A DNA stretch of 64,000 nucleotides from Clostridiales bacterium. Lineage in GTDB: Bacteria > Bacillota > Clostridia > Oscillospirales > Oscillospiraceae. The notes beneath the pieces were generated by a model, which worked only from the letters and a program-made list of their open reading frames with translations, was not told the origin of the DNA and did no database searches. The position numbers and the translations under genes are program-made. Shown here piece after piece: positions 22,597 to 53,624 of this stretch; within the stretch, counting starts at the first letter, position 1; each line of letters begins with the position of its first letter. Where the stretch lies: contig JAAYJC010000038.1 in NCBI GenBank assembly GCA_012523085.1, forward strand, positions 62-64,061, read 5' to 3'.

Positions 22597-22609
22597 GAAT
22601 CAAATTTAA

Positions 22610-22730
22610 TCATTTCCGTGCCTTGCGGTCTAAGGGGAAACCTATGAACGTTTGGCCTGAGCCTTTGGGTTCACGGGGTCGCATCCGGAAACGGCGCGGC
22701 CTTCCCGTTTTGAGAAGGAGATAAGCTTCC
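22610..22730 (+). promoter_or_regulatory. Probable molybdenum-cofactor (Moco) riboswitch aptamer
   Basis: The leader contains ..AAGGGGAAACC..GGCCTGAGCCTTTGGG..CACGGGG..CCGGAAACGG (GAAA-loop hairpin)..GGCCTTCCCG..GAGAAGGAG. This resembles my memory of the Moco RNA motif. It lies between a promoter and an intrinsic terminator, upstream of modABC-moeA-moaA-moaC. Confidence 0.5.
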
Positions 22731-22823
22731 GTATCGGTGTATGCTGTCCGCTGCGGAATACGCATAAGCTCTTCCGGCATAATGCCGCTTTGCGTCAAAG
22801 CTGCTCTGCATGTTGCTAAACTG

Positions 22824-22864: not shown

Positions 22865-22902
22865 GTCTTCTGTGGTAAATACAAATGGAAAGGAAACGAA
22901 AA

Positions 22903-23712
22903 ATGAAAAGACCAATCGCTTTTCTTTTCACAATAGTAATGGTATTTGCACTGACAGCCTGCAAAAACGGCAAATCCCCGGCGGTCGAAGACGCGTCTGT
23001 CGAGCTGACCGTGTACGCGGCCGCTTCGCTGACCGAAACGCTGACTAAAGCGGCCGAGCTTTACAGGGAATCGGCGCCGAATGTCACTTTTACATTTACC
23101 TTCGACTCTTCCGGTACCCTGAAGACGCAAATTGCGGAGGGCGCGGACTGCGACATTTTCATTTCGGCGGCCCAAAAGCAAATGAACGAGATGGACATTA
23201 CATCAGATAAGAATACCGCGGGGCTGGATTTTGTGGATTCATCAACGCGCTTCAATATCGTAGAAAACAAGGTCGTGCTGGTCGTGCCGGACAATAACCC
23301 GGCCGGCATCGCATCCTTTGATGACATCGCCACGAAGGCTGTGTCTTTGCTTGCCATCGGAAACTCGGATGTGCCTGTCGGCCAGTACGCGCAGGAAGTT
23401 TTAATAAACATGGGTATCTTCGATCGGATCAGCGAAAAAATAACCTATGGCTCCAATGTCAAGGAACTCACCACCTGGGTCGGTGAAAACACGGTTGACT
23501 GCGGCATTGTTTACGCGACCGACGCGTATTCCGCAGGACTTCAGGTGATTGCCGAGGCTCCGGAGGGGATGCTGAACACACCGGTGCTGTATCCCGCCGC
23601 GGTATTGAAAACCGCAAAGAATCCCGGGGCGGCCAAAGCCTTTCTGGATTTCCTGAAAACAGACGCCTGCGCTGCCGTGTTTCAGGAAGTGGGCTTTTCC
23701 GTTCCGGGTTAA
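22903..23712 (+). CDS. modA: Molybdate ABC transporter substrate-binding lipoprotein
   Basis: MKRPIAFLFTIVMVFALTAC lipobox. The body has YAAASL..FDSSGTL..QI..GA..D.F.SA and VPVGQYA motifs typical of ModA. Confidence 0.9.
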   Translation: MKRPIAFLFTIVMVFALTACKNGKSPAVEDASVELTVYAAASLTETLTKAAELYRESAPNVTFTFTFDSSGTLKTQIAEGADCDIFISAAQKQMNEMDITSDKNTAGLDFVDSSTRFNIVENKVVLVVPDNNPAGIASFDDIATKAVSLLAIGNSDVPVGQYAQEVLINMGIFDRISEKITYGSNVKELTTWVGENTVDCGIVYATDAYSAGLQVIAEAPEGMLNTPVLYPAAVLKTAKNPGAAKAFLDFLKTDACAAVFQEVGFSVPG

Positions 23713-23792
23713 CGCCTGCTTTTCCGGTAAAAGCCGTTTGCGGCACGCTGATAATCAATCGCTTTATGCTCAAAGCCGAAGGAGGCGCTCTT

Positions 23793-24488
23793 ATGGACTG
23801 GTATCCCCTCATAAACTCGCTGAGAATCGCGCTGATATCGACTTTCATCACATTCTTTCTCGGTATCCTAGCGGCCTATTATATCGCCAAAACACCCAGG
23901 CTGATAAAGGGGATTCTGGATGTGATTCTGACCTTGCCTTTGGTTTTACCGCCAACGGTTATCGGGTTTTTTATCTTAAAGCTCATGGGGCCGAGGGGAC
24001 CGGTCGGCTCGCTGCTCTTCGATCTCTTTCAGACAAAGGTCGTCATGACCTGGTATTCCGCGATATTCGCGACGGTGATCATCACGTTTCCGCTGATGTA
24101 CCGCACAGTTCGCGGCGCGTTTGAGAGTTTTGACATGACGCTCAAATACGCGGGGCAGACGCTCGGACTCAGAAACACCTATATTTTCTGGCATATCATG
24201 ATGCCGTATTGCAAGCAGGGGATTATAGCCGGAACCGTTTTGAGCTTTGCCCGCGCGCTGGGCGAATACGGCGCGACAAGCATGGTGGCGGGCTATACAC
24301 CGGGAAAGACCGCAACGATCTCCACGACCGTATATCAGCTCTGGCGGACCGGAGACGATTTGCTTGCCTACAGGTGGGTTGCGATAAACGTTGCAATCTC
24401 CTTTGTCGTTTTGATTGCGATTAATTTCTTTGAACGAAACTATAAAAAGGCGGGCGGGAAACGCTCGCAGTATAATGGCCTTGCATAA
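23793..24488 (+). CDS. modB: Molybdate ABC transporter permease
   Basis: GAAGGAGG RBS. 231-aa polytopic protein with an EAA-like loop (FARALGEYGATSMVAG). Confidence 0.9.
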   Translation: MDWYPLINSLRIALISTFITFFLGILAAYYIAKTPRLIKGILDVILTLPLVLPPTVIGFFILKLMGPRGPVGSLLFDLFQTKVVMTWYSAIFATVIITFPLMYRTVRGAFESFDMTLKYAGQTLGLRNTYIFWHIMMPYCKQGIIAGTVLSFARALGEYGATSMVAGYTPGKTATISTTVYQLWRTGDDLLAYRWVAINVAISFVVLIAINFFERNYKKAGGKRSQYNGLA

Positions 24489-25581
24489 AACAGCAATAGG
24501 GCCGCACGGCATTCGGGGAGTGAGGATTCTGCTGAGCGTAGATATAAAGAAAAATCTGGGGAGCTTTAACCTGAACGTGTCCTTTGAAGCGGGAAATGAA
24601 ACGCTGGCGTTGCTCGGCGCCTCCGGCTGCGGCAAAAGCATGACGCTCAAATGTATCGCCGGTATAGAAAAGCCGGATGAGGGCCGCATTACGCTTGGCG
24701 GCAAAGTGCTGTTTGACGCGCAGAAGAACATCAATCTGTCGCCCAGGCTGAGAAGGGTCGGCTATCTGTTTCAGCAATACGCGCTATTTCCGAATATGAC
24801 GGTGCTGCGCAATGTTGTGACCGGTGTAAGGGATAACAATAAGGCGCAGGCAAGAAATAAGGCGCTCGAGGCGCTTGAGCTTATGCGCTTGACGGGATTT
24901 GAGGATAAGTATCCGCATCAGCTCTCCGGGGGAGAGCAGCAACGCGCCGCGCTGGCCAGGATTCTGGTCAACGAGCCTGAGATTTTGCTGCTTGATGAAC
25001 CGTTTTCCGCTCTTGACAGCTATTTAAGATGGCAGCTTGAGCTTGAACTGTCCCAGATCATGGCGTCATACGGCGGCACGGCTGTGTACGTTTCCCACAA
25101 CAGGGACGAGGTGTACAGGCTGTGTGACAGCGTCTGCGTTTTAACCGAAGGGCGGTCGGAGAAGAAAACCCGGGTGAGAGACTTGTTTGACGAGCCCGCT
25201 ACGCTTTCTGCCTGCCTTTTAACGGGCTGCAAAAATTATTCCAGGATTAAGAGACTTGATGACAATCTGTTGGAGGCTTTGGATTGGGGCACCGTTTTGA
25301 GGGTTTCAAAGCCGATAGGGCAAAATGCCGCCTATGTCGGCATGCGTGCGCACTATCTCAGACCGGTCGACAGCCCCGGCGAAAACACCGTCGAATGTAC
25401 GGTTGAGCGGGTTATCGAGGATGTTTTTTCCGTTGTGGTCATGCTGGGAACGCCGGGCGGAAAATCCGGTTACGCTCAGCTCAGGCTGGAAACGGGAAAG
25501 GATAAGTTGACCTCGTTTACACAATCGAATAAAATATTAATATATATGGACCCCGGGGATCTGATGGTACTAAAAGAATAA
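24475..25581 (+). CDS. modC: Molybdate ABC transporter ATP-binding protein with a C-terminal TOBE/Mop-like domain (exact start uncertain)
   Basis: Walker A GASGCGKS, signature LSGGEQQR, Walker B LLLDEP. ATG 24475 overlaps the modB stop, and a GTG at 24519 is an alternative start. Confidence 0.85.
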   Translation: MALHKTAIGPHGIRGVRILLSVDIKKNLGSFNLNVSFEAGNETLALLGASGCGKSMTLKCIAGIEKPDEGRITLGGKVLFDAQKNINLSPRLRRVGYLFQQYALFPNMTVLRNVVTGVRDNNKAQARNKALEALELMRLTGFEDKYPHQLSGGEQQRAALARILVNEPEILLLDEPFSALDSYLRWQLELELSQIMASYGGTAVYVSHNRDEVYRLCDSVCVLTEGRSEKKTRVRDLFDEPATLSACLLTGCKNYSRIKRLDDNLLEALDWGTVLRVSKPIGQNAAYVGMRAHYLRPVDSPGENTVECTVERVIEDVFSVVVMLGTPGGKSGYAQLRLETGKDKLTSFTQSNKILIYMDPGDLMVLKE

Positions 25582-34776: not shown

Positions 34777-35388
34777 GTGACCCGGGATAAAGAAATGCAA
34801 ATCATCCGGCGTGTTCTGGATGGCCATATAAACGACTTTGAAGCGCTTGTTCTCGATAATCAGAAAAAGGTCTATAATCTTGCGCTGAAAATGACGAAAA
34901 ACACGGAAGACGCATATGATATATCGCAGGAAGCTTTCATAAAGGCCTATAACGCGCTGAAAAATTTCCGGGGTGACAGCAGCTTCGGGGTATGGATTTA
35001 CCGGCTGACCTCAAATTTGTGTATTGACTTTCTGCGCAGGGAAAAGAAACGGAAAACATCCCCGCTGGTTTACATAAATGACTCGAACACCGAACAGGAG
35101 ATTGAGATATCGGATGTCAGCTACGAGCCTGAGGCGCTCTATGAAAAAGCGGAAATCAGGCAGGCCATAAGCGATGGGTTAGAGAAGCTTCCGGAGGATC
35201 ACAGGCAGGTTTTAATTTTGCGGGAGCTCGGCGGCCTGAGTTATGCGGAGATCGCGGAGACGCTGAATCTGGAAATCGGAACGGTGAAATCCAGGATATT
35301 CAGGGCGAGATCAAATCTTGTAAAGTATCTTTCAGCGCAAGGAAACTTTTTTTGCAAAGCATCGTCAAAAGAGAAGAAAGGAGAGTGA
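34777..35388 (+). CDS. ECF-type RNA polymerase sigma-70 family factor
   Basis: GAGGTGA RBS, then GTG. Region 2 (DAYDISQEAFIKAY) and region 4 (LSYAEIAETLNLEIGTVKSRIFRAR). Confidence 0.85.
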   Translation: MTRDKEMQIIRRVLDGHINDFEALVLDNQKKVYNLALKMTKNTEDAYDISQEAFIKAYNALKNFRGDSSFGVWIYRLTSNLCIDFLRREKKRKTSPLVYINDSNTEQEIEISDVSYEPEALYEKAEIRQAISDGLEKLPEDHRQVLILRELGGLSYAEIAETLNLEIGTVKSRIFRARSNLVKYLSAQGNFFCKASSKEKKGE

Positions 35389-35393
35389 GATGC

Positions 35394-36347
35394 ATGACAG
35401 GTTGTGATAAGTTCAACGAACTGATTAGCGCCGCGATTGACGGCGAGGTTACGCCTGACGAAGAAAAAGAGCTCATTTTACATATGGAAGCATGCAGCGA
35501 ATGCAGATCGCTCTTCTCGTCACTTCGTGTGCTGTCCAATGAATTTTCCGACATGCTGATCGAACCGCCGGATAAACTGGTAACCGAAATCATGGACAGG
35601 CTCAAAAACCGAGCGGATAAACGCGATAAAAGGAAATATTTCACGCTGTTCGGGCGTTTTGCCGCGGCGGCGGTAATCGTTCTGGTGTTGTTCGCTGCGG
35701 ATGTATTTAAACCGACGGGCCAAAATACGGCTGAAATGCAATATGCCGACGCGATGGCGATGGCCGATTCCGGCGGCGAAAAAGAGCGCGAAGAGCCAGA
35801 GTCATCCCTCAAATATGACGAGGCATACATGTCGAGGGGCGAAGAAACGGAAGAGGATTCCGGGCTTTTGGGTGCGGGCTATGGCTTTGAGGATATCGCC
35901 GCGGACACGGAGCATAAAAATGATGAAAATTTAGAAGGCGGCGGCGAGCATGGCAGTCTCGGCAGCGCGGCGCCGGCTGATAGCCTCGCGGCCGGCGGGT
36001 CTGACCCGGAAAGAAGCCCGGAGCCGACAGCGGCGCCGGCTCCGCAGCCCTCCGCTGTGTCGTCTCCCGCTGCTGTTATGTACGCTGCAAGCGCGAAAGC
36101 GAGAGAGATCTGGGTAATAAATTCATACAACAGCTCGAGTTATTACTGCGTTTCGATCATCAGCGGCACTATTCCCGAACAACTGGAAGACTGTGCGCTG
36201 ATTGCGCAAAACGGCGGCGAAATGCACTATCTGGTCCCGTGGGAATCGATTGAAGAGCTCAACGAGGAAAACCGTTTTTCCGAAATATTTTATGATGATC
36301 TGGACGCCGAATATGGTATAGTGGTGGTAGACATCCCAATGTCTTAA
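35394..36347 (+). CDS. Anti-sigma factor (zf-HC2), single TM, acidic/Pro-rich linker, C-terminal domain of unknown function
   Basis: CDKFNELISAAIDGEVTPDEEKELILHMEACSECRSLF is a zf-HC2 motif. TM helix FGRFAAAAVIVLVLFAA. Overlaps the sigma gene's stop. Confidence 0.7.
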   Translation: MTGCDKFNELISAAIDGEVTPDEEKELILHMEACSECRSLFSSLRVLSNEFSDMLIEPPDKLVTEIMDRLKNRADKRDKRKYFTLFGRFAAAAVIVLVLFAADVFKPTGQNTAEMQYADAMAMADSGGEKEREEPESSLKYDEAYMSRGEETEEDSGLLGAGYGFEDIAADTEHKNDENLEGGGEHGSLGSAAPADSLAAGGSDPERSPEPTAAPAPQPSAVSSPAAVMYAASAKAREIWVINSYNSSSYYCVSIISGTIPEQLEDCALIAQNGGEMHYLVPWESIEELNEENRFSEIFYDDLDAEYGIVVVDIPMS

Positions 36348-49113: not shown

Positions 49114-49917
49114 ATGACAAGCGGCGCCAACGGCAGAACGCCGGGCCGGCCTGAGCAGTCAAGACAACGCGATAGAACCGTAAGGCGCCGCAGGCGAAGA
49201 AGACGGAGCACCCTGTTCAAACCTATTGTGTATATCATTATGGTGGCCGTAATGGCGGCGGGTATCAGCGTTTTTTTTAAGATCTCTCACATTGAGATAA
49301 AAGGGAATATCAGGTACACAGCGGGCGATATTATTGCGGCCTCCGGGCTTAAAGAAGGCGACAACCTGATCTTCATCAACGCATTTCAAATATCGAATAA
49401 GATATTTCGTCAATTGCCTTATGTGCACGAAGCGACAATATCCAGACGGCTGCCTGACACGGTTGTGATCGGAATTGAAGAGAGCTATCCGCTTGCATCT
49501 GTTGCATTTGGAGCCGGATATTATATAATAGATAAAAACTGCAAGATCCTTGAGAAAACAGACCGTTCGGGAAGCATCGGCACGATTACCGTAAAGGGCA
49601 TAGAGCCGATACTTCCCAAAGTAGGTGAAAGGCTGGCTTTAAGTCAGGAGGCTCACCATAAGGTTACCTATCTGTCTGAACTATTAACGGCGATTCTCAG
49701 CCGCCAAATGCAGGCGGATATAGGTGATATCGATATGACCGACTCAGGCAACGCGGCATTTTCCTATTTGGGCCGATTTACCATAGAATTGGGAAAACAG
49801 GAAGGGATAGACTATAAGTTAGAACAGCTTGATGAAGTGCTAAGCCAGCTCTCGGCCGGCGAAACCGGACGAATAATCCTGGCCGCTGACAGAGAACCGC
49901 ATTTTATTCCCAACTGA
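49114..49917 (+). CDS. Cell division protein FtsQ/DivIB (POTRA domain)
   Basis: Arg-rich cytoplasmic N-terminus, one TM helix and a POTRA-like segment (ISHIEIKGNIRYTAGDIIAASGLKEGDNL). Its position before ftsZ also fits. Confidence 0.75.
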   Translation: MTSGANGRTPGRPEQSRQRDRTVRRRRRRRRSTLFKPIVYIIMVAVMAAGISVFFKISHIEIKGNIRYTAGDIIAASGLKEGDNLIFINAFQISNKIFRQLPYVHEATISRRLPDTVVIGIEESYPLASVAFGAGYYIIDKNCKILEKTDRSGSIGTITVKGIEPILPKVGERLALSQEAHHKVTYLSELLTAILSRQMQADIGDIDMTDSGNAAFSYLGRFTIELGKQEGIDYKLEQLDEVLSQLSAGETGRIILAADREPHFIPN

Positions 49918-50102
49918 GTTTATGAACGGAGCTTCCGCCCGGCCTTTCCCGGAAATATCGGACAGCTCAAAATGACAGTTTTATCGCCAACAGCCGATGT
50001 ATCGGCACGCGGAGTCATCCGCCTTAGCGCATCATGCGGAGAAAATCCAAAACGGAAGATAAATGCAGCCGATAAAACGGCCGCTTCATGGAGGGGAAAG
50101 GT

Positions 50103-51221
50103 ATGGCGTTCACATTGGAAAACGGAATGGAAGATGTTGTGAGAATCAAGGTTATCGGTGTAGGCGGGGCCGGCAACAATGTTGTCAGCAGAATGGTATC
50201 CTGCGGTACCGAGGGAATCAAATTTGTTAATATCAATACGGACAAGCCTACCTTGAATGTGTCCGGTGCCGATTTCAAGCTTCAGATCGGTGAAAAGCTG
50301 ACACATGGGCAGGGAGCCGGCGCAAACCCGGATATCGGCCGGAAATCGGCGGAGGAAAGCCGGAATAACATCGCAAAGCTGTTTGAGGAAACCGATATGG
50401 CCTTTATCACAGCCGGAATGGGCGGCGGTACGGGCACGGGCGCGGCGCCGATTGTGGCGGAAATCGCACGCGAAGCCGGCGTTCTGACTATCGGTGTCGT
50501 AACAAAGCCCTTCAAATTTGAGGGGATGACGAAAATGCGGACAGCGGAGGCCGGTATCAGCGCGATGCTTGAGTATGTCGATACGCTGCTGGTGATTCCA
50601 AATGAAAAGCTCAAACAGGTATCCGATCAAAAGATAACCTTTGCCAATGCCTTCGATATTGCCGACAATGTGCTGCATCAGGCCGTCATCAGCATAGCCG
50701 ATCTTTTGCGGAACACAAGCTTTATCAATCTGGACTTCGCCGATCTGAAAACGATTATGCTGGGGGCCGGTTATGCACATATGGGCGTTGGAAAGGCCAG
50801 CGGAAAAGGAAAGGTCGAAGAAGCGTCGCAAGCTGCGATTTACAGCCCCTTGATGGAAACCTCAATTGAGGGCGCGCGCAGGGTTTTGATTAATGTAACC
50901 GGCTCAATGGACATTACGATGGAGGATATAGAAAGCGTAGTCGGAAGGGTTCAGACCGCCGCGCATCCGGACGCCAACATCATTTTCGGCGTCGATTTCG
51001 ATGAATCGCTGGCGGACGCTTTGCAGGTCATTGTCATCGCAACGGATTTTGACGAAAAAGTAAAGGCCGGCGATACCAAAGAAGCGGTATCTGCGCCGGA
51101 AGCGGAACCCGGAAAGAGTGCGGCAGAAATGCTGAAGCATGAACAGACGCAGGAGCAGGTCAGGCAGGAGAATGCCGACGACGGATGGGATGAACTGGTC
51201 AAGTTCTTCAACCGTGACTAG
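50103..51221 (+). CDS. ftsZ: Cell division GTPase FtsZ, paralog 1
   Basis: GVGGAGNN, GGGTGTGAAP and NLDFAD (T7 loop) motifs. The C-terminal peptide is DDGWDELVKFFNRD. GGAGGGG RBS. Confidence 0.9.
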   Translation: MAFTLENGMEDVVRIKVIGVGGAGNNVVSRMVSCGTEGIKFVNINTDKPTLNVSGADFKLQIGEKLTHGQGAGANPDIGRKSAEESRNNIAKLFEETDMAFITAGMGGGTGTGAAPIVAEIAREAGVLTIGVVTKPFKFEGMTKMRTAEAGISAMLEYVDTLLVIPNEKLKQVSDQKITFANAFDIADNVLHQAVISIADLLRNTSFINLDFADLKTIMLGAGYAHMGVGKASGKGKVEEASQAAIYSPLMETSIEGARRVLINVTGSMDITMEDIESVVGRVQTAAHPDANIIFGVDFDESLADALQVIVIATDFDEKVKAGDTKEAVSAPEAEPGKSAAEMLKHEQTQEQVRQENADDGWDELVKFFNRD

Positions 51222-51293
51222 ACGGTATCGTCTCCGCATCCGATTATGTTTACCGGTTTTTTTCGTTTCGTGCGTAAAATGCGCCGTTTGCTA

Positions 51294-51322
51294 TTGACCT
51301 CATAGCCAAATAGAGATAAAAT
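51294..51322 (+). promoter_or_regulatory. Candidate sigma-A promoter (TTGACC-17-TAAAAT) in the ftsZ1-ftsZ2 spacer
   Basis: TTGACC at 51294-51299, a 17-nt spacer, TAAAAT at 51317-51322, within an AT-rich 184-nt spacer. Confidence 0.45.
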
Positions 51323-51405
51323 TATCAAAAAATGAGTAAATAGCATTTTGCTTTTAATATAATATGGAACATATGCCTATCTAAAATATACAGGAGGTTA
51401 ATGCA

Positions 51406-52536
51406 ATGCCATTTTCGCTGGAAACGGGTCCGGATAATGTGGTCAACATAAAGGTTGTTGGTGTCGGGGGAGCCGGCAATAATGTCGTTAACAGAATGGT
51501 CAAATCAGACACGAAGGGTGTCGATTTCATAGCAATAAATACAGACAAGCAGGTTCTGGCTGTTTCAGACGCGAACCTGAAGATACAAATCGGTGAGAAG
51601 CTCACGCATGGACAAGGCGCGGGCTCCGATCCGGAAATCGGCAGAAAATCCGCTGAGGAAAACAGAAACAATATTGTAAAGGCCTTTGAAGATACCGACA
51701 TGGCGTTTATCACGGCCGGTATGGGCGGAGGGACCGGCACCGGCGCGGCGCCGGTGGTTGCCGACATTACAAAAGAATCCGATATTTTAACCATCGGCGT
51801 GGTAACAAAGCCTTTTAACTTTGAAGGCAAGCGCCGTATGCTGCAGGCTGAAGCCGGAATTCAGGAACTGCTCGGAAAAGTGGATTCCCTTTTGGTCATA
51901 CCCAATGACAGGCTCAAATACGCGACAGACCAGAAGATTACCATGTTCAATGCTTTCGAGATTGCCGACTCCGTTTTGCATCAGGCCGTCACAAGCATAT
52001 CCGACCTGATCAAGAACACCGGATTCATCAACCTCGACTTTGCCGACGTGACGACGATCATGAAAAATGCGGGCTATGCGCATATGGGCGTCGGAAGAGC
52101 CAGCGGCAAAAACAAGGCCGAAGAGGCGGCCCGCCTTGCGGTGTCAAGCCCGCTGATGGAGACCTCCATCGACGGTGCGCGGGGCGTTTTGGTCAGCATA
52201 ACCGGCTCAATGGACATGGGCCTTGAGGAAGTTGAAAATGCTGCGGGCCTGGTACAGGGCGCCGCGCATCCCGACGCGAATATCATATTCGGCGCGGCGT
52301 TTGACGATTCCATGGACGATGAGATAAGGGTCATCGTCATCGCCACGGGATTTGATGAAAAGGCGCAGACGGTAAGCGCCAAAACCGCCGACGCAAAGTC
52401 TCAGCCGGGCTTATTCAGCGGAGAGCGCGCTCCGGAAGCGGCGCAGCAAAAGCCCGCGCCCCAGTCGCCGGAACCGAAAAAGGAGCCCGAGGAGGACCCC
52501 TTTACCAAAATTCTGGAGATCTTCAATTCAAAATAA
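51406..52536 (+). CDS. ftsZ: Cell division GTPase FtsZ, paralog 2
   Basis: Same signature motifs, all intact. The C-terminal peptide is EDPFTKILEIFNSK. AGGAGG RBS. Confidence 0.95.
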   Translation: MPFSLETGPDNVVNIKVVGVGGAGNNVVNRMVKSDTKGVDFIAINTDKQVLAVSDANLKIQIGEKLTHGQGAGSDPEIGRKSAEENRNNIVKAFEDTDMAFITAGMGGGTGTGAAPVVADITKESDILTIGVVTKPFNFEGKRRMLQAEAGIQELLGKVDSLLVIPNDRLKYATDQKITMFNAFEIADSVLHQAVTSISDLIKNTGFINLDFADVTTIMKNAGYAHMGVGRASGKNKAEEAARLAVSSPLMETSIDGARGVLVSITGSMDMGLEEVENAAGLVQGAAHPDANIIFGAAFDDSMDDEIRVIVIATGFDEKAQTVSAKTADAKSQPGLFSGERAPEAAQQKPAPQSPEPKKEPEEDPFTKILEIFNSK

Positions 52537-52575: not shown

Positions 52576-52600
52576 ACGGGCGGCGTCTGCCGCCCGTTTA
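52576..52600 (+). terminator. Rho-independent terminator after ftsZ paralog 2
   Basis: ACGGGCGGC-GTCT-GCCGCCCGT followed by TTTAATACTGATTT. Confidence 0.6.
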
Positions 52601-52772: not shown

Positions 52773-53624
52773 ATGGAAAATGTAGAAGAGCTGGTTTTTT
52801 CGGGCAGCTTTATTACCGCCATGATCATCCTTCTTCTGGCTTGCAGTACGCTGCCTGTCCTGTATTTCATTTTTTACGCGTTTAAACGGAAAATTAATTA
52901 TATCGCGGTTTTTGCGGGTATTCTGGGCGCGGTTTTTTTCGGGATATTTGTCCAGGGTATTTTGCTCAGCAACCTGATTCCGGAAAACAGAATGCAGGCG
53001 ATTGGCCCGGTTCCGTACGCGATTTATCAGGCTCTGATTATCGGCATTGTCAATGTCAGCGGTATTTATATCGTGTTAAGGCTGCTTTCCGCAAGATATG
53101 AGTCATTAGGCGCACCGATTTCGGTCGGCCTTGGCTATGCTCTGGTTCCGATGATACTGGACGGCGCTGTTAACGCGGCCACAAGGCTGTCTTTTGCCTC
53201 TGCGATAAACGAAAAGGGAATGGCTCATGTACTCAGTACGGTCAACCCGGGAGACAGGGAAAGTTTTCAACAAACAATGGAGGAGCTTGCCGCCCAGCCG
53301 ATTGCACCGTTTTTGTATACCGCGGCTAAGTTCATCTGCTTCTTCATGATCTGCGTTGCGATAACGCGGCTGCTCTGGTATTCGCTGTACGGGAAAAGAC
53401 GCAATGCGTCATGGCTGTTTATACCCGCTGCGTATGTTCTCAGATCCATCCCCGAGCTTCCTTTGGCGCTATATACGACCGAAGCGGTTTTAAATAAAGT
53501 GGCGACCGATTGCGCATACTTTGGTATAACAGCCATCATCGTACTGTCTGCGGTCATTGTATCCAGGTTGTGGGATGAAAAGGAAAAGGTGGTATCCGGA
53601 CCGCTGAACAGGAGACTGCTCTAA
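52773..53624 (+). CDS. Polytopic membrane protein of unknown function (weak YhfC/DUF2324-like impression only)
   Basis: 283 aa with about 7 predicted hydrophobic helices. I recognise no catalytic motif. Confidence 0.5.
   Translation: MENVEELVFSGSFITAMIILLLACSTLPVLYFIFYAFKRKINYIAVFAGILGAVFFGIFVQGILLSNLIPENRMQAIGPVPYAIYQALIIGIVNVSGIYIVLRLLSARYESLGAPISVGLGYALVPMILDGAVNAATRLSFASAINEKGMAHVLSTVNPGDRESFQQTMEELAAQPIAPFLYTAAKFICFFMICVAITRLLWYSLYGKRRNASWLFIPAAYVLRSIPELPLALYTTEAVLNKVATDCAYFGITAIIVLSAVIVSRLWDEKEKVVSGPLNRRLL

Follow-up and report, generated by a model that had tools for sequence, protein, structure and literature searches.

Textbook bacterial division relies on a single FtsZ, and division rings built from two FtsZs belong to plastids and archaea. 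The plastid FtsZs co-assemble in one ring, in which one protein provides stability and the other turnover (PMC3494859, PMC8142252, PMC12343686). FtsZ1 and FtsZ2 of Haloferax volcanii form a dual machinery with distinct roles, and SepF has been described as the FtsZ2 anchor (bioRxiv 10.1101/2020.06.04.133736, 10.1101/2023.03.28.534543). Bacterial ftsZ paralogues have been reported as often truncated (bioRxiv 10.1101/2025.09.29.679267), a 2023 survey found extra bacterial copies outside the dcw cluster (PMC9871819), and a Firmicutes-wide study handled FtsZ as a single-gene family (PMC8136486). Segatella copri DSM 18205 carries two full-length, apparently redundant ftsZ genes, and the second copy of S. 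sanihominis RHB01 is truncated (bioRxiv 10.64898/2026.04.17.719208). Known bacterial paralogues are mostly truncated, located outside the dcw cluster or known from single strains, and two-FtsZ division has rarely been reported in bacteria.

An intact tandem ftsZ pair closing a dcw cluster

In the 64,000-nucleotide stretch of DNA that was analysed (the window), two intact ftsZ genes close a dcw cluster. The original prediction of two tandem genes held for both lengths and positions: ftsZ1 (Z1; 50103..51221, + strand; 372 aa) is a derived, faster-evolving paralogue with a complete GTPase core, and ftsZ2 (Z2; 51406..52536, +; 376 aa) is the conservative copy. They are flanked by ftsQ/divIB (POTRA_1, Pfam PF08478, E = 6.5e-17; 49114..49917, +) and by a gene for a YhfC-family intramembrane metalloprotease (52773..53624, +). 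The Z1 reading frame can open at 50088 or 50103 and ends at 51221 (+). The start at 50103 is backed by the ribosome-binding site GGAGGGG (50090..50096, +), which lies 6 nt 5' of this ATG and is kept in the relatives with long spacers, and it agrees with the MAFTL start of the Z1 orthologues. No ftsA lies between ftsQ and Z1, as had been noted, but the configuration is not unusual, since in Oscillospirales loci with a single ftsZ (more than 40 examined) the usual order is murA-ftsQ-ftsZ, with no ftsA.

Z1 and Z2 are 61% identical over their full length (BLASTP) and 68.9% identical over the 309 columns of the core, in line with the earlier estimate of about 69%. At the DNA level, the first 960 nt are 68.8% identical, with saturation at synonymous sites (pS 0.71). 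An independent assembly from a Logan run (L001) has the same arrangement, its Z2 being 100% identical to that of the window, as is the visible part (297 aa) of its Z1; thus, the pair is not an assembly artefact. This second assembly, the saturated synonymous sites and conservation throughout a clade all bear out the claim that the pair is old, neither an artefact nor a recent copy.

Inspection of synteny, a check proposed with the prediction, recovered the order ftsQ-Z1-Z2-yhfC in 6/6 relatives whose loci were fetched (viewed with ~8 kb of flank); two of these, P0030 and P0056, had been picked solely for a Z2 within the Z2 clade. Across the seven genomes compared, i.e., the window and these six relatives, ftsQ is always immediately 5' of Z1 (7/7). 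In at least 10 more cases, Z1 and Z2 lie on one contig, as judged from equal contig sizes. Thirty Z1 orthologues group in one clade (bootstrap 100), and the Z2 copies that accompany them fall in a 49-member one (bootstrap 97). Every carrier found is an uncultured MAG, with some labelled Papillibacter sp. or Clostridiales bacterium, and the pair-bearing Oscillospiraceae inhabit gut and digester. As an observation apart, yhfC lies directly 3' of Z2 in 7/7 pair-bearing genomes and was not found 3' of the single ftsZ in sister lineages; this adjacency may be clade synteny only.

A scan of a genome collection with Z1 matched sister lineages with one ftsZ, as well as another clade in which two ftsZ genes lie in tandem; neither the source genome nor close Z1 relatives were among the matches. 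This second tandem ftsZ pair occurs in other Oscillospiraceae (L022, L023, L048). When metagenomes were scanned with generic FtsZ motifs from the Z1-clade alignment, no Z1 orthologue was among the matches listed, and none of the 80 metagenome loci among these matches has a second ftsZ within 3 kb. Those 80 loci were used as background only, for this second-copy check and for residue frequencies.

GTPase core, polymer interface and termini

Both proteins match the Pfam Tubulin and FtsZ_C families (PF00091 and PF12327) and exceed the cut-off of the NCBIfam FtsZ equivalog TIGR00065 (295.2 bits), with 367.6 bits for Z1 and 398.4 for Z2. GGGTGTG and NLDFAD are present in both copies, as predicted. 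The conserved core residues of loops T1-T7, GGGTGTG included, vary little or not at all among the 30 Z1 and 49 Z2 sequences, and the N, D and D of the T7 loop NLDFAD stand at 100% in either clade. The AlphaFold model of Z1 (pTM 0.77; core blocks with pLDDT mostly >85) retrieved only FtsZs as its top 48 PDB matches (target TM-scores 0.86-0.94), with target TM-scores of 0.90-0.94 against the S. aureus, B. subtilis and M. tuberculosis proteins, and Z2 matches B. subtilis FtsZ with E = 9.5e-109. By its sequence, Z1 should still polymerise and bind GTP, and its T7 loop should still activate hydrolysis.

The fixed changes of Z1 cluster on the longitudinal polymer interface, mainly on its nucleotide (top) face. 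Codons 142-144 of Z1 (50526..50534, +) read M-T-K, where Z2 and the single-copy relatives have K-R-R. Residue 144 is equivalent to R143 of S. aureus and B. subtilis (E. coli R142), an arginine-finger-like catalytic residue in helix H5 said to be conserved across species. All 30 Z1 sequences have Lys here and all 178 Z2 and single-copy sequences, including 49/49 Z2, have Arg; this KRR-to-xxK replacement also removes both basic neighbours of the catalytic Arg. Position 49, the counterpart of S. aureus Q48, is Gln in 49/49 Z2 and 0/30 Z1; Pro occupies it in 41/129 single-copy relatives. On the opposite polymer face, the equivalent of E. coli L272 is always Met in Z1. E. coli K141/R142 contact D209/D212 of the adjacent subunit, and L272 is likewise an interface contact (PMC7010359). 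S. aureus R143K and Q48A each assemble, with GTPase activity reduced ~6-fold and stabilised straight filaments (PMC8936486), which is why a slow, filament-stabilising Z1 is suspected. Among outgroup FtsZs, 3/40 likewise have Lys at the R143 position, as do 13/69 FtsZs from the metagenome background, none with a second ftsZ in the sequence fetched. Since Lys144 and Pro49 occur in other, single FtsZs, a lone FtsZ could carry these changes and be fully functional, and the 13/69 background cases keep Z1 within the FtsZ family despite its Lys144.

The termini also set the paralogues apart. The C-terminal peptides read as quoted in the earlier note: that of Z1 is DDGWDELVKFFNRD (51177..51218, +), with a practically invariant Trp as clade signature (29/30 Z1 and 0/178 Z2 and single-copy sequences), and that of Z2 is EDPFTKILEIFNSK (52492..52533, +), of the ancestral family type (DPFxxIFxIF). 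Single-copy relatives end in EEDPFDSIFKIFNSK, and Z2 keeps the ancestral peptide EEDPFxxI[LF]xIFNSK. Both tails are conserved inside their own clades, the Z1 tail being a variant of the same amphipathic peptide, and neither fits the classical FtsZ tail consensus D-I-P-x-F-L-R. At the other end, Z2 keeps the ancestral peptide xFxLExGP[DE]NVV, of which Z1 has lost GP[DE]NVV. In the Z1 model, residues 319-361 form a disordered linker (pLDDT <50) followed by a short predicted helix (361-369). The contrast between 'unrelated' linkers drawn in the original prediction did not prove meaningful: it reflects ordinary drift of a disordered region. Linker composition was accordingly rejected as a functional difference, as length, charge and composition overlap at clade level. 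Consistent differences between Z1 and Z2 are instead found at both terminal peptides and on the top polymer face, where the catalytic Arg is among the residues affected.

On balance, we lean toward an old, clade-retained pair of tandem duplicates in which Z2 would be the canonical FtsZ and Z1 an accessory, slow-hydrolysing subunit that co-assembles with it; of the alternatives offered in the original prediction, a modulatory FtsZ or heteropolymer remains the best reading. We infer that Z1 and Z2 co-assemble, that the Z1 GTPase is the slower one and that the two bind different partners. As a slowly hydrolysing, filament-stabilising subunit of the Z-ring, Z1 would tune ring turnover together with Z2, and its Trp tail may change either how tightly it binds tail-docking proteins or which of them it binds. 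A bolder reading, possible though rather doubtful, is a bacterial two-FtsZ machine with more than one origin in one order, a counterpart to FtsZ1/FtsZ2 of plastids and archaea. In the present clade, a canonical, fast-hydrolysing Z2 and a slow, Trp-tailed Z1 would both be needed and would polymerise together, the two subunits sharing out ring turnover and attachment to the membrane or to partners. If the pair in the other Oscillospiraceae were independent, the family, with no adjacent ftsA and a non-classical tail, would appear predisposed to such a split of FtsZ.

Z1 might instead act outside the division ring, in a separate cytoskeletal structure serving cell shape, polar structures or other membrane remodelling. 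Tubulin-family paralogues with roles beyond the division ring do exist, as illustrated by Magnetospirillum FtsZm and archaeal CetZ; the missing GP[DE]NVV peptide and the distinct tail would suit such a role, and changes on both polymer faces of Z1 could favour self-association over mixing. We nevertheless regard this as unlikely, given that Z1 stays in the dcw cluster right after ftsQ in every genome examined, that its core is 69% identical to that of Z2 with the core residues of the interface loops intact, and that in place of a new domain it carries an altered form of the same tail peptide.

Transcription of the two genes and sporulation

The Z1-Z2 spacer (51222..51405, +; 184 nt, 66% A+T) retains only four conserved blocks in the seven genomes, namely, a T-run, a -35 element, a -10 element and a ribosome-binding site. 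The two promoter elements make up a predicted sigma-A-type promoter for Z2, TTGACC-17-TAAAAT (51294..51322, +), and the ribosome-binding site is AGGAGG (51392..51397, +), invariant in all seven. The extended motif ctATTGACC-17-TAnAAT precedes Z2 in 7/7 pair-bearing genomes and also the single ftsZ in 18/18 sister-lineage loci. Both signals, which had been predicted, have thus been kept in 7/7 genomes despite saturated synonymous divergence. By sequence, terminal peptides and promoter, Z2 is the heir of the ancestral ftsZ.

The further claim of separate promoters stands for Z2 and fails for Z1, which starts 12-41 nt after ftsQ in 4/7 genomes and has no conserved promoter in the longer ftsQ-Z1 spacers of the others. 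The dcw operon appears to have Z1 as its final gene. Just 5' of its ribosome-binding site, the window has a GC-rich stem-loop, GCAGCCG-ataaaa-CGGCCGC (50065..50084, +), found with altered bases in L059 as well, which is possibly an RNA-stabilising or processing hairpin. Downstream of Z2, a GC-rich hairpin read in the sequence, ACGGGCGGC-gtct-GCCGCCCGT followed by TTT (52576..52599, +), has equivalents in most relatives, so the transcription unit probably ends there. Between Z1 and Z2, L058 alone has a convincing intrinsic terminator (-18.5 kcal/mol); the one in L060 is moderate, and the window has at most a weak one, which leaves the transcript structure uncertain. Codon bias (Nc, GC3), taken as a proxy of expression, revealed no consistent difference between Z1 and Z2, and an Rfam scan for leader RNAs found none near the pair. 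We picture Z2 as expressed from the inherited sigma-A promoter and behind a long leader, and Z1, placed between ftsQ and that promoter, as probably transcribed by read-through of the dcw operon.

This organisation bears on the proposal that the copies are specialised for sporulation, one building the vegetative mid-cell ring and the other the asymmetric septum, or, in a variant, one copy supplying the burst of FtsZ that B. subtilis draws from a sigma-H promoter. The hosts have the look of spore formers, with spoIVA a few genes downstream of the pair in L058 and L060, a SpoIIP fragment in L061 and, in the window, a protein with three LysM domains and GH18 (of the spore-cortex-hydrolase kind) and a SpoVD-like PBP; the transcriptional inputs of Z1 and Z2 do differ. 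Over 400 nt upstream of Z1 and the Z1-Z2 spacer of the seven genomes, no sigma-H/E/F/G/K motif was detected ahead of either gene, and a Spo0A-box motif occurs once only, in L060, in a scan with B. subtilis consensus sequences, which makes it a weak test. The sole conserved promoter is of the sigma-A type and inherited from the single-copy ancestor, Z1 is embedded in a housekeeping operon, and close relatives of the pair-bearing lineage manage with a single ftsZ. Sporulation-specialised Z-rings, as originally put forward, therefore appear improbable.

Selection, origin and known paired FtsZ systems

Purifying selection acts strongly on both genes, with omega values of 0.029 (Z1) and 0.010 (Z2) in the closest pair. 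The prediction of two functional-looking genes survives, with intact frames and no relaxed dN/dS in either; being intact, old and under purifying selection, the copies are neither an assembly duplicate nor a pseudogene. The test for asymmetric rates proposed at the outset was positive: Z1 changes about 2.7 times faster than Z2, dN(Z1)/dN(Z2) ranging from 1.6 to 3.5 (median 2.7) and exceeding one in 21/21 genome pairs. Mean column entropy is 0.62 in the Z1 clade and 0.28 in the Z2 clade, and fixed substitutions, all chemically conservative, number 13 Z1-only and 1 Z2-only. Pairwise dN values of Z1 and Z2 co-vary (r = 0.89); thus, the two diverged together. Gene conversion, suspected in L061 from a pS of 0.40, was discarded because a GC3 of 0.85-0.89 explains the low value.

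A merely redundant or dosage duplicate, with both copies doing the same job and either one sufficing, would fit two complete, conserved and tailed FtsZs and has a precedent in two full-length bacterial FtsZs (bioRxiv 10.64898/2026.04.17.719208). Redundant copies are, however, not expected to last clade-wide through saturated synonymous divergence, and the consistent 2.7-fold asymmetry, the uneven tally of fixed differences and a paralogue-specific tail and N terminus, each itself conserved, make redundancy quite unlikely. Under the accessory-subunit reading that we prefer, an uncultured Oscillospiraceae lineage would have duplicated its ftsZ in tandem, distally in the dcw cluster, and Z1 would then have gone through a burst of fixed changes before being held by purifying selection.

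As to its timing, the duplication occurred either at the base of the 49-member clade, Z1 accelerating afterwards, or earlier, with loss of Z1 in the single-copy lineage; counts of informative site patterns came to 1:1:1 with strict thresholds and to 5:1:1 when these were loosened. Insertion of a foreign ftsZ from another Oscillospirales lineage beside the native gene is very unlikely, for although neighbour-joining places the Z1 clade outside the Z2 clade, on the branch to the outgroup families (bootstrap 95), the long Z1 stem makes long-branch attraction likely, the strict site patterns are even, Z1 is closest by raw identity to Z2 and its single-copy relatives (65-69%, as against 50-59% for outgroup sequences), and same-orientation adjacency in the dcw cluster is the product expected of tandem duplication. 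Either origin leaves the functional reading unchanged.

A clade-wide, full-length pair inside the dcw cluster amounts to a natural experiment on paired FtsZs, which could reveal how filament turnover and tail-mediated docking divide between two subunits. For annotators and for pipelines that build phylogenies from core genes, the pair is a warning: ftsZ cannot be treated as single-copy in these Oscillospiraceae of gut and digester. Two marks of a dual-FtsZ division system of the plastid or archaeal type are found here, i.e., co-retention across a lineage with selection on both copies, and paralogue-specific differences in the tail (Trp), in assembly (K144, position 49) and at the N terminus.

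Like plastid FtsZ1/FtsZ2 (FtsZB/FtsZA), Z1 and Z2 are two GTPase-competent paralogues that have been long retained and differ in their C-terminal peptides. The two systems have independent origins; plant FtsZ1 lacks the conserved tail, whereas both copies are tailed here, and in our case it is the derived copy, Z1, that is predicted to be the more stable one. In contrast to the archaeal pair, Z1 and Z2 are arranged in tandem, lie in a peptidoglycan dcw cluster and are confined to one bacterial family-level clade. R143K and Q48A were made in the laboratory, in an organism (S. aureus) with one FtsZ whose sequence background differs, whereas Z1 naturally carries Lys and lacks Gln at the equivalent positions. 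The truncated paralogues of Alphaproteobacteria (Agrobacterium FtsZ1/FtsZ3, Hyphomicrobiales) are likewise bacterial duplicates that may tune division; unlike them, Z1 and Z2 are both full length, with linker and tail, and adjacent in the dcw cluster. Compared with the two genes of S. copri DSM 18205, the Z1/Z2 pair is clade-wide and asymmetric, and its copies are set apart by fixed differences.

Locus organization and age of the tandem ftsZ pair

The forward strand of the window carries a dcw cluster (38.2-52.5 kb) that begins with mraZ and continues with rsmH (38717), an ftsL-like gene (39744), a SpoVD/FtsI-type PBP with PASTA domains (40292), murE, mraY, ftsW, murG, murA, and ftsQ/divIB (49114-49917), in that order. 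It ends with two ftsZ genes, the upstream Z1 (50103-51221; 372 aa), directly after ftsQ, and the downstream Z2 (51406-52536; 376 aa). Both products exceed the curated FtsZ equivalog threshold and contain GGGTGTG and NLDFAD. Z2 aligns without gaps to Bacillus subtilis FtsZ (E = 9.5e-109), and the Z1 model (pTM 0.77) matches the FtsZ structures of Staphylococcus aureus, B. subtilis, and Mycobacterium tuberculosis with target TM-scores of 0.90-0.94. The paralogs are 61% identical over their full length and 68.9% over 309 core columns. Their 184-nt spacer (66% A+T) holds the Z2 promoter TTGACC-17-TAAAAT (51294-51322, with the -10 hexamer TAAAAT at 51317-51322) and the AGGAGG ribosome-binding site (51392-51397). 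The identity, motifs, spacer, promoter, and ribosome-binding site of the original prediction thus hold. An in-frame ATG at 50088 offers an alternative Z1 start, but 50103 is favored because GGAGGGG lies at 50090-50096 and the orthologs begin with MAFTL.

The window comes from an uncultured MAG labeled "Clostridiales bacterium" (protein NLO47327.1), and all other carriers that we found are likewise uncultured MAGs. Close relatives of Z1 are few (about 30 clusters, 62-86% identity), whereas those of Z2 number in the hundreds (72-92%). In a neighbor-joining tree of 248 sequences (Kimura-corrected distances, 309 core columns, 100 bootstraps), Z1-type sequences form a single clade (n = 30, bootstrap 100), and all Z2-type proteins known to share a contig with Z1 fall into another (n = 49, bootstrap 97). 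Six relatives' loci were fetched, four through Z1-type proteins and two (P0030 and P0056) picked solely for a Z2 within the 49-member clade; all six have the order ftsQ-Z1-Z2-yhfC, and at least 10 further Z1/Z2 pairs were judged, from contigs of equal length, to share a contig. The sister group without the pair comprises 129 protein clusters and 18 genome loci, mostly from rabbit-gut Oscillospiraceae MAGs, and each of these loci reads murA-ftsQ-ftsZ with one ftsZ. Tandem ftsZ genes are rare in the background, with none in 80 related metagenome loci among the matches listed. The pair is thus old and belongs to a clade, in line with the earlier view that it is not a recent event. A separate assembly, built from another sequencing run, shows an identical layout, and its Z2 and the portion of its Z1 that can be seen are 100% identical to those of the window; as also held earlier, the pair is not an assembly duplicate. 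Three unusually long FtsZ proteins, P0013 (464 aa), P0014 (492 aa), and P0034 (414 aa), two of them on very short contigs, score high against both Z1 and Z2 yet lie outside both clades and end in the tail DPFDDIFKIFNRER.

Directly after Z2, each of the seven pair-bearing genomes has a gene for a YhfC-family intramembrane metalloprotease (52773-53624 in the window). In the 18 sister-lineage loci, tblastn gave no match to this gene in the 6 kb that follow the single ftsZ. Its position could reflect plain clade synteny or a functional link. Elsewhere in the window, a few kilobases ahead of the dcw cluster, an ECF sigma factor is paired with a zf-HC2 anti-sigma factor (34777-36347). At 22602-22736, a molybdenum cofactor riboswitch (RF01055, 63.8 bits) precedes a molybdate-type ABC transporter (22885-25581) and the Moco genes moeA and moaA. 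On the reverse strand, a 512-aa xxxLxxG heptad-repeat protein with no Pfam match adjoins a 697-aa MMPL-family membrane protein (57772-61431), a pairing that recalls YhgE/Pip-type systems. The same strand encodes a protein (56154-57614) that combines three LysM domains with GH18, the architecture of spore-cortex or peptidoglycan hydrolases of the YaaH/SleL type. This protein, and the spoIVA and spoIIP genes that relatives have near the locus, suggest that the organism is a spore former.

The ancestral copy and transcription of the pair

Three independent features, namely sequence, terminal peptides, and promoter, identify Z2 as the heir of the ancestral gene. Single ftsZ products of the sister lineages are 68-73% identical to Z2 versus 58-66% to Z1. 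Z2 keeps both terminal peptides of the single-copy proteins, xFxLExGP[DE]NVV at the N terminus and EEDPFxxI[FL]xIFNSK at the C terminus, and Z1 has changed both. Promoters were called from consensus matches plus conservation. Across the seven genomes, the only conserved blocks of the Z1-Z2 spacer are a T-run, CTATTGACC, TAnAAT 17 nt on, and AGGAGG, and in 18/18 sister-lineage loci the single ftsZ is preceded, at a distance of 83-119 nt, by the same TTGACC-17-TAnAAT in a nearly identical context ((c/g)tATTGACC in most). The ancestral layout was therefore ftsQ-[promoter]-ftsZ, with Z1 now sitting between ftsQ and that promoter.

The original prediction gave each gene its own promoter, which stands for Z2 but not for Z1. 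The ftsQ-Z1 gap is 12-41 nt in four genomes, and the three genomes with 126- to 185-nt spacers share just a ribosome-binding site and a small GC hairpin, and no conserved promoter. The simplest reading is thus that Z1 is the final gene of the dcw operon. A terminator 3' of Z1 is convincing in only one relative (L058), so some Z2 transcription may come from read-through as well; behind Z2, the window and most relatives have GC-rich hairpins. In the window, the hairpin before Z1 is a GC-rich stem-loop (50065-50084) directly 5' of the ribosome-binding site with no T-run after it. It recurs at the same place with different bases in L059, is weaker in L057, and is possibly an RNA processing or stabilizing element at the ftsQ/Z1 junction. 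Single ftsZ genes (L002-L018 and L053) have a conserved block, TGAATAAAAATTCCA, about 10 nt upstream of the -35 hexamer, and it is absent before Z2 in pair-bearing genomes; this block is a possible UP element or regulator site, altered since the duplication. The leaders of these single genes also carry a GC hairpin (aaagcgcgc...gcgcgctt) right before the ribosome-binding site.

This promoter evidence bears on the suggestion that one paralog serves a ring specific to the sporulation septum. Using B. subtilis consensus sequences, we saw no sporulation promoter signal in the seven genomes, and the sigma-A promoter of Z2 was inherited from the ancestor; such specialization, proposed originally, now seems unlikely.

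Divergence of Z1

Z1 has evolved faster than Z2. dN is larger in Z1 for 21/21 genome pairs (Z1/Z2 ratio, 1.6-3.5; median, 2.7), an asymmetry of rates that the original prediction had proposed to test for. Saturation of synonymous sites affects nearly every comparison and makes omega values rough; for the closest pair (window versus L059), omega is 0.029 for Z1 and 0.010 for Z2, and both copies are under selection. The dN matrices correlate (r = 0.89), and the paralogs have therefore diverged together with their hosts. Sites at which one group has a fixed residue that sets it apart from the other three number 13 in Z1, one in Z2, and one in the single-copy relatives; this pattern marks a burst of substitutions along the Z1 stem, with constraint thereafter, and not decay. 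In L061 (6801-9083), within-genome pS between the two genes is only 0.40, a value that probably reflects their extreme codon composition (GC3, 0.85-0.89) rather than gene conversion.

Throughout the Z1 clade, the conserved core residues of the nucleotide-binding and T7 loops show little or no variation, and by sequence Z1 should bind GTP and activate hydrolysis in a neighboring subunit. Its fixed differences cluster at the longitudinal interface (window residues are numbered one above those of B. subtilis and S. aureus). Residue 144, equivalent to S. aureus R143 and Escherichia coli R142, is Lys in 30/30 Z1 sequences and Arg in all 49 Z2 and all 129 single-copy sequences; the adjacent residues 142-143, a basic K-R in those sequences, are lost in Z1, where they become A/S/M and A/K/T. 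Residue 49 (S. aureus Q48), always Gln in Z2, is never Gln in Z1 (Pro in 27, Ala in 2, Ser in 1). The opposite face also carries fixed or nearly fixed changes: V215L, at the position immediately following the catalytic Asp; G260R; L273M, whose E. coli counterpart is L272; A280V; and, where helix H7 ends, S199A, I202L, and K203R. In the E. coli filament, K141 and R142 touch D209 and D212 on the neighboring subunit, and F137 forms the packing surface of L272 (PMC7010359). S. aureus R143 behaves like an arginine finger: R143Q abolishes assembly, and R143K and Q48A each still assemble, with about 6-fold-lower GTPase activity and straight filaments that resist disassembly (PMC8936486). Z1 naturally bears the milder forms of these R143 and Q48 changes on its nucleotide-bearing face, and we infer that GTP bound to Z1 should therefore be hydrolyzed slowly, whichever paralog sits on top. 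Lys144 also occurs in 3/40 outgroup FtsZs and, among the matches listed, in 13/69 background FtsZs, with no second ftsZ in the sequence fetched, and Pro49 occurs in one third of single-copy relatives; an FtsZ that is the only copy can thus have either residue.

Beyond the core, the linkers had been described as unrelated, a contrast that does not generalize: across the clades, Z1 and Z2 overlap in length (41 versus 36 aa), net charge (-4.9 ± 3.5 versus -3.1 ± 2.1), and composition. The real difference lies in the terminal peptide (DDGWDELVKFFNRD in Z1 and EDPFTKILEIFNSK in Z2 of the window). The Z1 tail, modeled as a helix following the disordered linker, reads [DE][DE]xW[DE]xLxx[FM]F, with Trp in 29/30 sequences (the exception has a scrambled tail) and in 0/178 Z2 or single-copy sequences. 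Both tails are variants of one amphipathic motif unlike the classical D-I-P-x-F-L-R. The lack of an adjoining ftsA, noted originally as unusual, is the rule for murA-ftsQ-ftsZ in more than 40 loci of the Oscillospirales and therefore a family trait rather than a peculiarity of the pair. The whole family combines this layout with a nonclassical tail, EEDPFDSIFKIFNSK, which suggests a tail-docking partner different from that of model Firmicutes.

A putative division of labor between FtsZ paralogs

Our preferred reading, to which we lend somewhat more credence than doubt, is that Z1 acts as an accessory, slow-hydrolyzing subunit that co-assembles with Z2 and docks differently. Z2, driven by its own sigma-A promoter, would be the main, fast-cycling FtsZ; Z1, produced by dcw read-through, would join the same filaments, introduce slowly hydrolyzing interfaces that tune ring stability and treadmilling, and dock differently by its Trp tail. 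A cytoskeletal role of Z1 outside division is improbable, as its position in the dcw cluster is conserved. Plain redundancy, as in Segatella copri, would make the copies interchangeable, which is hard to reconcile with fixed asymmetric differences, and we consider it quite improbable. Horizontal acquisition of Z1, compatible with its tree position, is very unlikely, since identity values and adjacency favor duplication with long-branch attraction.

In full-text literature searches, we encountered no description of two full-length ftsZ genes in tandem, whether in Oscillospiraceae or in other Firmicutes. A 2023 family-wide survey placed the extra ftsZ of the few two-copy bacteria outside the dcw cluster (PMC9871819), and a 2021 Firmicutes survey listed FtsZ as monogenic (PMC8136486). 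Recent preprints count "at least five" independent bacterial ftsZ duplications, often truncated (bioRxiv 10.1101/2025.09.29.679267), and report that S. copri DSM 18205 has two copies, both full-length and redundant (bioRxiv 10.64898/2026.04.17.719208). What sets the Z1/Z2 pair apart is that two full-length copies stand in tandem within the dcw cluster, throughout a clade, and are asymmetric at residues that matter for catalysis. Other Oscillospiraceae MAGs (L022:6001-8407, L023:5884-8160, and L048:6001-8330) contain a second tandem pair of independent origin, in the order murA-ftsQ-ftsZa-ftsZb, with about 16 nt between the ftsZ genes in L022. Its six proteins form one clade (bootstrap 89) with separate upstream and downstream subclades. 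Here the downstream copy is the derived one, with an altered tail, YE[RL]LL[KD]ML (AYRDIMAIFNKK shifting to YERLLKMLTE), and with Arg144 and Gln49 retained.

The labor division proposed for Z1 and Z2 would resemble that of the plastid FtsZ1/FtsZ2 and archaeal FtsZ1/FtsZ2 systems, a likeness in working, not in descent.
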